DNA from: Eledone cirrhosa | Taxonomy: Eukaryota | Assembly (NCBI GenBank): GCA_964016885.1 | Contig: OZ024743.1 | Location: 146,754,001-146,818,000, forward strand | Direction of reading: 5' to 3' | DNA length: 64,000 bases | Shown: piece after piece, positions 7,471 through 13,573 of the stretch | Numbering within the stretch: position 1 is the stretch's first letter | Layout: every line of letters begins with the position of its first letter | The notes under the pieces: model-generated | Databases searched by the model: none | Told to the model about the DNA's origin: nothing | Seen by the model: the letters and a program-made list of their open reading frames with translations, nothing else | Position numbers and translations under genes: made by a program

Positions 7471-7524
<54 letters not shown>
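7471..7524. repeat. (AAT)18, shared tail of the Dong-like (+) and Tx1 (-) elements
   Basis: Directly read. Confidence 0.97.
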
Positions 7525-7526
<2 letters not shown>

Positions 7527-7787
7527 TTTCTTTATTAACCACAAGGGTTTACATAAAGTAGACATTAAGGACAGTGCAGGACAATGCAGGACGGTACAAA
7601 TGGGCATTTCTGCGTGTAAAAAAAACAAAAATAGAGGATGTAACAAAAATAACAATGAAAATAACAATGAAAAATTCCCCAATAGGGGGGAGACTTCGGA
7701 GGGACATTTGTGGAGAAAGCCCAGTAAAAAGCCACAATGACCCTGACCACCAAGGCAAGTGCCCTCTCCCAGTTTTCCACCTTTAGT

Positions 7788-11207: not shown

Positions 11208-11242
11208 GTTTAAAATAGAGTGGAAAAGATGGGAAAGACCAC

Positions 11243-13372
11243 TTACCGTATTTTTGGTAGAGGAGGGATGGTTTTTACATCCCTTTTCACTTGATCGTCT
11301 GGTGAAGGGACCGTTGAATCGTCCCTTCGGCTGGTCGTCGGCTCTTCTAAGAGAATGTCTGAATATACTCTTCGATTAATGGTTCCTCCTAGGTCCCTGA
11401 AATCACCAACTGCGTTGGGGAATTTCGTTTTAATGTTTGTGTATTGTTTCTGTGCTATTTTTAGCAGTCTTATGTTAGTTGGCGTTTTGATTGGTGCTGG
11501 TATTATGTAGTCCTGTTGTGAAATGTCTGTGTGTTCAATTATGTAAGTCATTAGTTTCTTGTTGTGTGTGTTTATTGCCGTGCATTTGTTTTTCTGGGGG
11601 TGGGGTGTGGTTCTGCTATTTTCTTGTCGTTGTTGCTGGGTGTGTGTGTTTTGTTGTTGTGTTTGCGATGTTGGTGCTTGTGGTGGTGGTGTTGAAGGTG
11701 TTGTTGGCGGTGGGGTTGTCGCCGGTGGTGATGGTGGTGCTGGTGTGGGTGGTGATGGTGTTGGTGGTGTTGCTGCTGTGGGTCTCTTTGCAGTAGACTT
11801 TACCCTTTTCTCATTTCTTTCCTCCCTTTTCAAAGGCGACGATGCGCTGCTTCTGCGTTTGTGCCTTCTTGAGACCTTTTGCCATCCCTCTCCCACCTCA
11901 CACTCCATGTCTGATTCTGTAAGGTCGGGGAGGGGTACCAGCTCCACTCTTTCACTTGTTGTTGTTGGTGATGTTTGCACTGGAGTCTCTGTTGCAGCTG
12001 CATTTGGTATTGCTGTTGTTGTTGTTAATATTTCCACTGCTGCTGCTGTCTTTGATTTCCGTGGAGTGGGTATGGGTGCCACGGACCTATCGTTCCTGGT
12101 TGCCGCTTGTCCTGTTGCTGGTAGCCGTGGAACCGGATTCGGGAGGAGGGGGGTTTTCTCCTTTCTCAGGGTCTTCTCGTTGCAGAAGGCCCTGAGGTGA
12201 GTCTTCGATCCACAGCGAAAGCATTTCGGGCGTTTGCCCTCAACACTTATGGGCAGTTGAGTGCCGTTATCGAAGTCTATCACATCCGGGATAGCTTCGA
12301 TGCACTCCTGGTTGGTTTGGATTAGCATCTCAATGGAGGAGCCGACCCAATCTTCTCTTACTTTTTTCTGTACTTGCAGTACAGTTGTTTTGTCCTCGAT
12401 TCCGACGAGGACAGACGCGGCCAGCCAAGAAGGGGTCATTCCGGGGGGGACGTGGGTCAGTTTGACCCTCACAATTTTTTGCCCGCAGTAGGAGGGCACC
12501 AACACCATTTCCTCGCTCCTTAGGGTCACTACTGATTGGGCCTTTGCCTCCTGGGGTGTGGCAAAAAGTACGTCTACGGTGGCGTATTTTTTGCCTCGGG
12601 TGATGTGCGTTTTCCTCTGCCACACAGACCCCAAGGCTTTTTGTATTTGGGCCTCTGTGGCTCTTTCCACCCTACGGGATTTTGTACTTACTGTACGGTA
12701 CGTGACCGTACAGTGCTCTTGGGTTTCGAAAAAATTTTTCGCTGCCTTGCAGATTGCTCGGTGTCCGTTCTTTGTCACCATCTTCTTCGCTTCCTCTAAT
12801 TCCTCATTTGTTATGAGGATTGTTTCCAGGTTTTTCGCAATACCTGCAAATGAGATTGGTTTTTCTCTGCTGTTGTTGTTGTCGTCAGAACTGCTGGTAC
12901 TTTTGTTGTTGCTGCAGGTACTACGACTACTGCCTCCGCCGCTGTTGCTGTGGTTGTTGTTGGTGTTGCTGCTGCTAATGCTGTTGTTGTTTATGCTGCT
13001 GGTGATGCTGTTGCGGCTGCTACTGTTGTTTTCATTGTCACTGTTGCTGTTGTTATTACGGCTGCTACTGCTATTATTCCTGACGTCAGACGAATGAACT
13101 GGGTTTTCGTATTTCCCGCACACCTGTTTCGTCGCTGTCGTCGTCGTCGTGGAGAAACCTTGCACGCTTTGCACGAGACTTTTCTTTTCTTTCGTCGCTT
13201 GCGAAAGAGAAGGGAGGGAGAGAGACACATTTAAAGAAGGGAGGGAGAGAGACAATCTTCTCTCTGCTGTAGTGATGATTGAGGAAGAAGAAGACGGAAT
13301 GAGTGGGAGTGACGTATGAAATTTCTTTTTCGTAGCCATGTTTTTTTGTTTAAAATGAAATTTTGGGTACAA
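11243..13372 (-). CDS. LINE ORF1p, gag-like nucleic-acid chaperone (up to 709 aa; may start at MATKKK)
   Basis: Directly upstream of ORF2 on the same strand. CCHC knuckle CFRCGSKTHLRAFC (12182-12223), basic WQKVSRRHKRR, S/N-rich and P/T-rich low-complexity tracts. Confidence 0.88.
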   Translation of the reverse strand: MYPKFHFKQKNMATKKKFHTSLPLIPSSSSSIITTAERRLSLSLPSLNVSLSLPSLSQATKEKKSLVQSVQGFSTTTTTATKQVCGKYENPVHSSDVRNNSSSSRNNNSNSDNENNSSSRNSITSSINNNSISSSNTNNNHSNSGGGSSRSTCSNNKSTSSSDDNNNSREKPISFAGIAKNLETILITNEELEEAKKMVTKNGHRAICKAAKNFFETQEHCTVTYRTVSTKSRRVERATEAQIQKALGSVWQRKTHITRGKKYATVDVLFATPQEAKAQSVVTLRSEEMVLVPSYCGQKIVRVKLTHVPPGMTPSWLAASVLVGIEDKTTVLQVQKKVREDWVGSSIEMLIQTNQECIEAIPDVIDFDNGTQLPISVEGKRPKCFRCGSKTHLRAFCNEKTLRKEKTPLLPNPVPRLPATGQAATRNDRSVAPIPTPRKSKTAAAVEILTTTTAIPNAAATETPVQTSPTTTSERVELVPLPDLTESDMECEVGEGWQKVSRRHKRRSSASSPLKREERNEKRVKSTAKRPTAATPPTPSPPTPAPPSPPATTPPPTTPSTPPPQAPTSQTQQQNTHTQQQRQENSRTTPHPQKNKCTAINTHNKKLMTYIIEHTDISQQDYIIPAPIKTPTNIRLLKIAQKQYTNIKTKFPNAVGDFRDLGGTINRRVYSDILLEEPTTSRRDDSTVPSPDDQVKRDVKTIPPLPKIR

Positions 13373-13573
13373 AACCCCAATAACTGGTTATTTAACCCCG
13401 AAGGGCCAAATATCGGACAGAAAGACCCCTCTCACGAGGAGGAGGGTGTCTTTATCAACAATTTGGTTCAAGTTTTAAACAATTTACAATTGTTTTAACG
13501 GTTAAAAATTACTATACCTTACAGAGCCGAGCCTCCGTCAACCATGGCATTCAATAATAATAATAATAATAAT

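Follow-up and report, generated by a model that had tools for sequence, protein, structure and literature searches.

How a non-LTR retrotransposon comes to lie exactly between two runs of the same microsatellite is the question raised by this locus of Eledone cirrhosa. The window analyzed here is the whole stretch of 64,000 nucleotides (C4:146754001-146818000), and the genome searched measures 3.0 Gb. Its most conspicuous feature is a LINE on the minus strand, bounded by (AAT)18 and (AAT)7, i.e., ATT in the reading direction of the element. Such repeats may be the target of the element, a part of it, or both. Microsatellite-specific Tx1 families have been described before, namely Kibi on (TC)n, Koshi on (TTC)n, and crocodilian families on (TTCC)n/(TTTC)n (PMC4494074, PMC3812793). 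The recognition of microsatellites by APE elements is nevertheless presented as poorly understood (PMC3812793), and the joining of the 5' end as the least settled step of non-LTR integration (PMC3774820). The evidence set out below indicates that the element is an intact copy of a very young L1/Tx1-like family which sits in (ATT)n and probably targets it by target-primed reverse transcription.

Anatomy of the Element

The coordinates of the element and of the repeats around it are collected in Table 1. Both reading frames are uninterrupted, as a previous sequence-only reading of the locus had noticed, and the same holds for the catalytic motifs it reported: SINARG, SETR, GDWN, YLD, TDH, QGCPLS, and YADD were all located in ORF2, together with Pfam matches to Exo_endo_phos, RVT_1, and zf-RVT. 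The abundance of CpG corresponds to an observed/expected ratio of 0.83 in the element versus 0.41 in the remainder of the window. A search of ORF2 for RNase H gave no match. ORF1 has no significant match in Pfam; at residue 373 it contains a gag-like CCHC knuckle (CFRCGSKTHLRAFC), a feature of the Tx1 clade. Its middle part is RNA-binding-like, which is a lead only, the Atlas look-alikes being CCHC/ZCCHC3-type clusters at 0.90-0.93. The single-sequence AlphaFold model of the endonuclease has a pLDDT of 38.6, too low to use. At the 5' end, an Rfam search for ribozymes returned zero families at gathering score, and HDV-like and hammerhead descriptors matched at chance level only (28 of 50 shuffles also match).

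Table 1. Features of the window (positions in the window; strand of the feature).
Feature	Position	Strand	Remarks
L1/Tx1-like non-LTR retrotransposon, full-length core, 5' end = head A	7525..13552	-	6028 bp
5' UTR	13340..13552	-	213 bp; first base G immediately 3' of ATT
ORF1	11243..13339	-	698 aa; ATG 13339, stop 11243; open; ends low-complexity
ORF1 CX2CX4HX4C knuckle	12182-12223	-	gag-like CCHC
ORF2	7788..11207	-	1139 aa; ATG 11207, stop 7788; open
APE endonuclease region of ORF2	about 10500-11207	-	
RT YADD motif of ORF2	9144-9155	-	
C-terminal CCHC of ORF2	8151-8204	-	
3' UTR	7525..7787	-	263 bp; AATAAA at 7531-7536 just ahead of the ATT tail
(AAT)18	7471..7524	.	exact; 3' tail plus leftover target repeat; doubles as 3' end repeat of the plus-strand RLE-type element
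(AAT)7	13553..13573	.	exact; 5' flank, tail of the older copy hosting the young insertion
Older 3' fragment, same family	13574..14409	-	92% identical; head-to-tail, directly upstream of the young copy
Decayed RT + restriction-like-endonuclease (RLE-type) LINE	5289..7470	+	between (AAT)9 at 5260-5286 and (AAT)18
Two older 3' fragments, related ATT-tailed families	58864..59742	-	75-79% identity; adjoin AAT-type repeats
5'-truncated copy of the sister family	57326-58298	+	(TATC)n on both sides; overlooked in the sequence-only reading

Placement

The arrangement of the element is that of the L1 group (L1/Tx1), with ORF1 ahead of an ORF2 that carries an N-terminal APE domain, RT, and a C-terminal CCHC. 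Within this group, sequence similarity favors the Tx1 side: the bit score is 340 to a medaka Tx1-type protein versus 181 to human L1 ORF2p, the RT is 34-41% identical to vertebrate Tx1-type proteins, and Polyodon YTX2, among the nearest vertebrate proteins with a name, is 29% identical over 905 aa. The only named protein close to it comes from Argonauta hians and is 74% identical to the element. In a quick RT tree of 41 rows, drawn from similarity searches and built without curated Tx1 references or L1 proper, the element joins the Argonauta protein (support 100) and then a set of proteins without names (99), and the clade of vertebrate YTX2-named proteins stands apart. Given this separate branch and the low RT identity, microsatellite targeting may have arisen independently in this lineage. 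The unnamed proteins (P0002-P0087), a large group that the tree places as sister to the octopod lineage, are 39-53% identical and belong to clusters of hundreds.

Copy Number, Age, and Selection

The first 21 bases of head A occur 1687 times in the genome, and a 21-base motif of the 3' end occurs 9671 times; the backward controls of these motifs have 0 occurrences. A second 5' end, head B (represented by L128), has an unrelated 5' UTR and an ORF1 about 65% identical to that of head A in its middle part, and joins the same ORF2 and 3' UTR (95-96% identical) about 80 bp upstream of the ORF2 start codon. Heads A and B represent a modular exchange of the 5' half; L118, L124, and L130 hint at further heads. 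Head B is found at 2308 genomic sites, and the two heads combined correspond to 41% of the occurrences of the 3' motif. The first rows of the 3' motif listing supplied 40 regions, of which 20 reach head A (6) or head B (14), 16 are truncated, and 4 are of other kinds.

The sequence-only reading had made its case dependent on near-identical copies, and these are abundant. Among the full-length copies fetched, the one closest to the window copy has 6 differences from it. As little as 0-1 substitution can separate copies located on different chromosomes, and between L074 (C2) and L088 (C1) there are 0 substitutions (indels left uncounted). Of 40 distinct full-length copies, most of which were picked by identity to the 3' end of the window copy, 31 retain two open ORFs. 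A protein search with the endonuclease gave 37,643 candidates; the best 150, which are the top-ranking ones and no random sample, were scored, all are 100% identical, and 135 of them lie inside open frames of at least 1139 aa (hand count). Near-identity across chromosomes and the share of intact ORF pairs point to a very recent burst. In ORF2, variants common to at least 3 of 41 copies are 23 synonymous and 6 nonsynonymous, versus 52 and 92 among singletons, as expected under purifying selection if only functional copies leave offspring. The family is therefore very young and high in copy number, and it may still be active today. An empty allele was sought in the assembly and not found; the neighboring junction is present once, and the locus junction is single-copy.

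Several arrangements of copies were observed in passing. Head-to-tail arrays comprise up to five full-length copies with a spacing of about 6.08 kb (C2:188052698-188080719 and others). Many copies (L100, L104, L105, L107, L113, L114, L126, L149) have large internal deletions with both ends kept, often at short repeated words, and are possible nonautonomous derivatives. At L278 (C4:16752848), two heads are inverted, back to back, around an AAT/ATT run. Some 20 kb ahead of the window, the opposite strand carries another copy, 99.65% identical (L263, C4:146734000-146735713), with a further head (L063) directly after it.

Near-identical copies could likewise stem from gene conversion, from duplication (segmental or tandem), or from errors in the assembly. 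The flanks common to L110/L111, L287/L288, and L292/L293 and the existence of tandem arrays agree with such an origin, yet as an explanation for the family it is extremely unlikely: the flanks of most copies differ, identity stops at the element edges, the copies lie on different chromosomes, the common variants are under purifying selection, and the family is present at very high depth in one public read run ("organism A"). Horizontal transfer was considered and rejected. The element was listed for many organisms, with no RNA data set among them. In the two inspected (X5, X10), it appears in low-depth (mostly 6-20), near-identical contigs; for organism I, the raw reads X22 (about 1% of the run) match low-complexity sequence only, although another run of this organism had half the words. 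These occurrences were read as cross-contamination.

Junctions of Full-Length and Truncated Copies

Comparing the flanks of genomic copies, the check proposed in the sequence-only reading, gave 5' junctions that are far from random. Five perfect in-phase ATT units precede 1600 of the 1687 head-A ends, and TT stands immediately before the first G in 1676, T being absent at -1 in 3 and at -2 in 8 more. For head B, in-phase (ATT)4 precedes 2098 of the 2308 sites. In 95 fetched head-A junctions, which include 8 sites fetched for being imperfect, the number of ATT units drops off sharply below 6 (18 bp), with a mode of 7 and a median of 8. The DNA beyond the run consists of tails of the same or related LINEs (32), SINE-like tails (6), (TTC)n compounds (9), and other sequences (48).

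These regularities might simply reflect ATT runs encoded by the element at its head and tail, with an insertion that is random or merely prefers AT-rich DNA. The 3' tail is indeed ATT in nearly all copies, and at least the last upstream unit is apparently element-borne (see below). Copies that have lost their 5' part are informative in this regard. The 121 regions fetched contain 143 3' ends, and 38 of these were classed as truncated, a set which includes a few internal deletions and duplicated loci. At least 9 bases of ATT lie within 25 bp upstream of the truncated end in 15 of these 38 rows, and in 5 of 9 rows at 97% identity or more, versus a background of 0.35-0.51% of window positions. 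Since truncated copies cannot carry the head yet often start in ATT, the repeat is a target and not just a tail. At the other 23 truncated ends, the adjoining sequence is (TTC)n, (ACT)n, an imperfect form of ATT, or unrelated, which speaks against a strict specificity; there, either the specificity is relaxed or the ends are later deletions.

The 3' side leads to the same conclusion. Out of 114 tails, 23 meet the 3' end of an RLE-type LINE in reverse orientation, and 27 are directly followed by another head. Together with the ATT at truncated ends, such tails entering other repeats indicate that pre-existing repeats are the preferred target. Many copies sitting exactly in pre-existing tails, including the reverse AAT end of the RLE-type element, and an identical junction at two unrelated heads are difficult to reconcile with encoded runs, which we therefore regard as very unlikely. 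A family has been called target-specific when one sequence type makes up more than 20% of its flanks (PMC4494074), and ATT exceeds this share at head A (1600/1687), head B (2098/2308), and truncated ends (15/38). The (ATT)n-specific insertion suggested from the window alone is thereby supported by three kinds of junctions.

A Probably Inherited Upstream Repeat and a Possible Mechanism

Whether the uniform 5' junction is produced by the nuclease alone or with the help of the RNA was approached through imperfect junctions, for which all copies with a non-T at -1, -2, -4, -7, -10, or -13 were fetched. Six copies have a CT|G junction. Of the 136 heads compared, only four (L269, L272, L273, L275) carry the internal variant 57G, and all four have CT|G at different loci with different flanks; this linkage has a hypergeometric p of 1e-6 before correction (544 variants and 7 classes tested). 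The four copies have further private variants in common. Similarly, L266 and L267 (ATC|G) have a common deletion, which is present in 7 of 136 heads, and L285 and L286 (ATG three units up) have three private variants in common. For the remaining classes of interruption examined, linkage was not clear, and further pairs of close relatives do not have their interruptions in common. The evidence for inheritance is limited to one old sub-lineage of four copies and two pairs. Because CT|G is accompanied by an internal marker at four loci that are unrelated, the element probably carries the last unit of the upstream repeat with it. The sequence-only reading had described the element as bounded exactly by (AAT)18 and (AAT)7: the repeats are indeed exact, while the boundary at the 5' side is probably not, at least the last upstream unit being apparently inherited. 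The (AAT)7 of the window copy would accordingly represent target duplication and/or an element-borne leader. An inherited 3' tail was rejected for the one interrupted tail tested, which L074 and L076 share without being sister copies.

By analogy with those R2 elements whose RNA retains target sequence and whose 5' junctions are uniform, it can be proposed with moderate confidence that the upstream repeat is kept in the RNA. As no ribozyme was detected by the searches described above, the leader would be due to transcription that starts inside the repeat or reads through from outside. From these junctions we infer the following course of integration. The APE endonuclease would nick the (AAT)n strand, with which the (AUU)n tail of the RNA would pair and thereby prime cDNA synthesis, and the second strand would be cut about 16-20 bp away. 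The RNA would start a few bases upstream of the first G, within the repeat, and the end of the cDNA would anneal in register with the target. This last step would account for the fixed phase of the ATT|G junction and also for the large proportion of copies that are full-length. Each insertion leaves a new ATT tract, so that head-to-tail arrays build up, and the tails of SINE-like repeats and of an RLE-type LINE are used as well.

A simpler scheme dispenses with the leader: the nuclease would cut both strands of (ATT)n in a fixed phase, the RNA would begin at the G, and the 5' run would be target duplication plus pre-existing repeat. The lower edge of the run at 6 units (18 bp) matches the duplications seen elsewhere, namely 16 bp, starting with ATT, at the truncated copy L154, and 10-19 bp in the sister family described below. 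Most truncated junctions also fit a fixed cut after ATT combined with microhomology, and in heads A and B alike the first base is a G preceded by T, where Pol II could plausibly initiate. At three imperfect full-length junctions (L101, L102, L106) inspected for the length of the duplication, the interruptions on the 5' side are not repeated on the 3' side, and these sites hence yield no such length. What this scheme leaves unexplained is the inheritance of CT|G with the internal marker at four loci, and the presence of at least five units in 95% of full-length copies, versus often three or none in truncated ones; L096 and L072, which are joined out of phase, also speak against it. Targeting by the nuclease alone is hence a possible account, with the balance leaning against it.

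A Sister Family on (TATC)n

A second family with another target was recognized through the truncated copy at 57 kb (Table 1). It has 1870 candidates genome-wide and a full-length head of its own (L223, L224), and a comparison of its ORF2 with that of the ATT family gives an identity of about 60% for the endonuclease and of 65-78% for the RT. The tail consists mostly of (TATC)n, at least four TATC units are present at the 5' junction in 10 of 20 fetched regions, and four truncated copies have duplications of 10-19 bp starting at or beside a TATC unit (both judged by eye). The family is also found at about 58405-58465 of the window and at the loci L155-L184 and L215-L234.

Order of Insertions in the Window

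The neighborhood of the element records several insertions into one kind of repeat. Because the older 3' fragment adjoins directly upstream, the young copy was inserted in the tail of an older copy. On the other side lies the decayed RLE-type LINE, whose relatives are RT proteins without the Pfam APE domain and whose C-terminal motifs we take to be Dong/R4-like. In the fetched loci, 30 of 32 RLE-type 3' ends are followed by at least three AAT. The likely history of the locus starts with a microsatellite, which received the RLE-type insertion; an older Tx1-like copy then entered the AAT end of the latter on the other strand, followed by the young copy. The observation that four 3' ends in the window (7525, 13574, about 58895, and 59016) abut AAT-type repeats in one orientation was confirmed, the two pieces at 58.9-59.7 kb being older relatives with only 75-79% identity and the repeat at 58895 being degenerate.

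Other remnants were also found in the window. A second RLE-type C-terminal fragment ends its reading frame at 47750-48358 (minus strand). Penelope-like GIY-YIG fragments occur at 14418-15540 (plus strand) and 44082-44657, the former meeting the older copy at its broken 5' end and terminating in a 99-bp tandem repeat. At 33984-35021 and 62861-63982 (both minus strand) lie RT fragments, presumably RTE-like, in which a PHD finger (Pfam PF00628) is inserted after the RT core. More distant L1/Tx1-like internal fragments are located at 20358-20713 and 27432-27796 (65% and 34% protein identity).

Relation to Known Systems

Like Kibi, Koshi, and the crocodilian Tx1 families, the present family consists of APE-RT non-LTR elements inserted in microsatellites; it differs in its target unit, which is ATT (TATC in the sister family), and in its RT, which lies on a separate branch. 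Its target is not that of Kibi or Koshi: (TTC)n was seen in no more than 9 of 95 heads, always preceding ATT, and at 2 junctions of truncated copies. Dong, an R4-clade element with a restriction-like endonuclease, has the identical microsatellite, whereas the endonuclease of the present family is of the APE type and its orientation is opposite; a Dong-like element is its neighbor in the window. The description of Dong from Bombyx, Anopheles, and Biomphalaria as targeting (TAA)n groups it with the APE types (PMC3812793).

Two other systems offer mechanistic parallels. The short tandem repeat as target and the presence of two families in opposite orientations recall SART1Bm, of the R1 clade, and TRAS, which sits on the opposite strand of the same repeat. 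SART1Bm is specific for (TTAGG)n and is reported to need several units (PMC7265360). Its target is telomeric and its tail poly(A), in contrast to the interstitial target and the repeat itself serving as tail here. R2 RNA that keeps upstream 28S sequence has been associated with uniform 5' junctions, propagation of junction variants, and annealing of the cDNA to the upstream target (PMC3774820). The uniform junctions and propagated variants are common to both systems, while R2 inserts into rDNA with an RLE nuclease and possesses an HDV-like ribozyme, as opposed to a simple repeat as target and no ribozyme found in the searches of the 5' end.

In Octopus vulgaris, L1-Tx1 (13 families, 421 insertions) and Dong-R4 (5 families, 1129 insertions) are listed as recently active (PMC13282606); in the text consulted, these young elements are counted with no analysis of their target sequences or junctions (PMC13282606, PMC9115989, PMC8967140). 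The family described here is likewise young and abundant in an octopus, and it could coincide with one of those families. The literature searched contained no ATT- or TATC-specific Tx1-like family; Repbase and the supplements of PMC4494074 were outside its scope, and a prior deposit there is possible. Relative to that literature, the ATT target unit, the phase-locked 5' junction with signs of an inherited leader, and the target-switched sister family are new.

Taken further, the findings may describe a radiation of APE elements in octopods in which microsatellite targeting arose independently, the target switched from ATT to TATC at about 60% endonuclease identity, the repeat is used at both ends of the RNA (for priming by the tail and for second-strand annealing by the leader), full-length integration is nearly perfect without a ribozyme, and (AAT)n is shared with an RLE-type element on the opposite strand. 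This broader reading is tentative, quite conceivable and still short of probable. With thousands of recent phase-locked insertions, a large number of copies still intact, 5' halves of two interchangeable kinds, and a sister family with another target, the determinants of specificity and the annealing model become directly testable. Repeat-targeting LINEs are of interest as gene-insertion tools, and in the genome of Eledone cirrhosa this family accounts for some of the ATT microsatellites and tandem LINEs.
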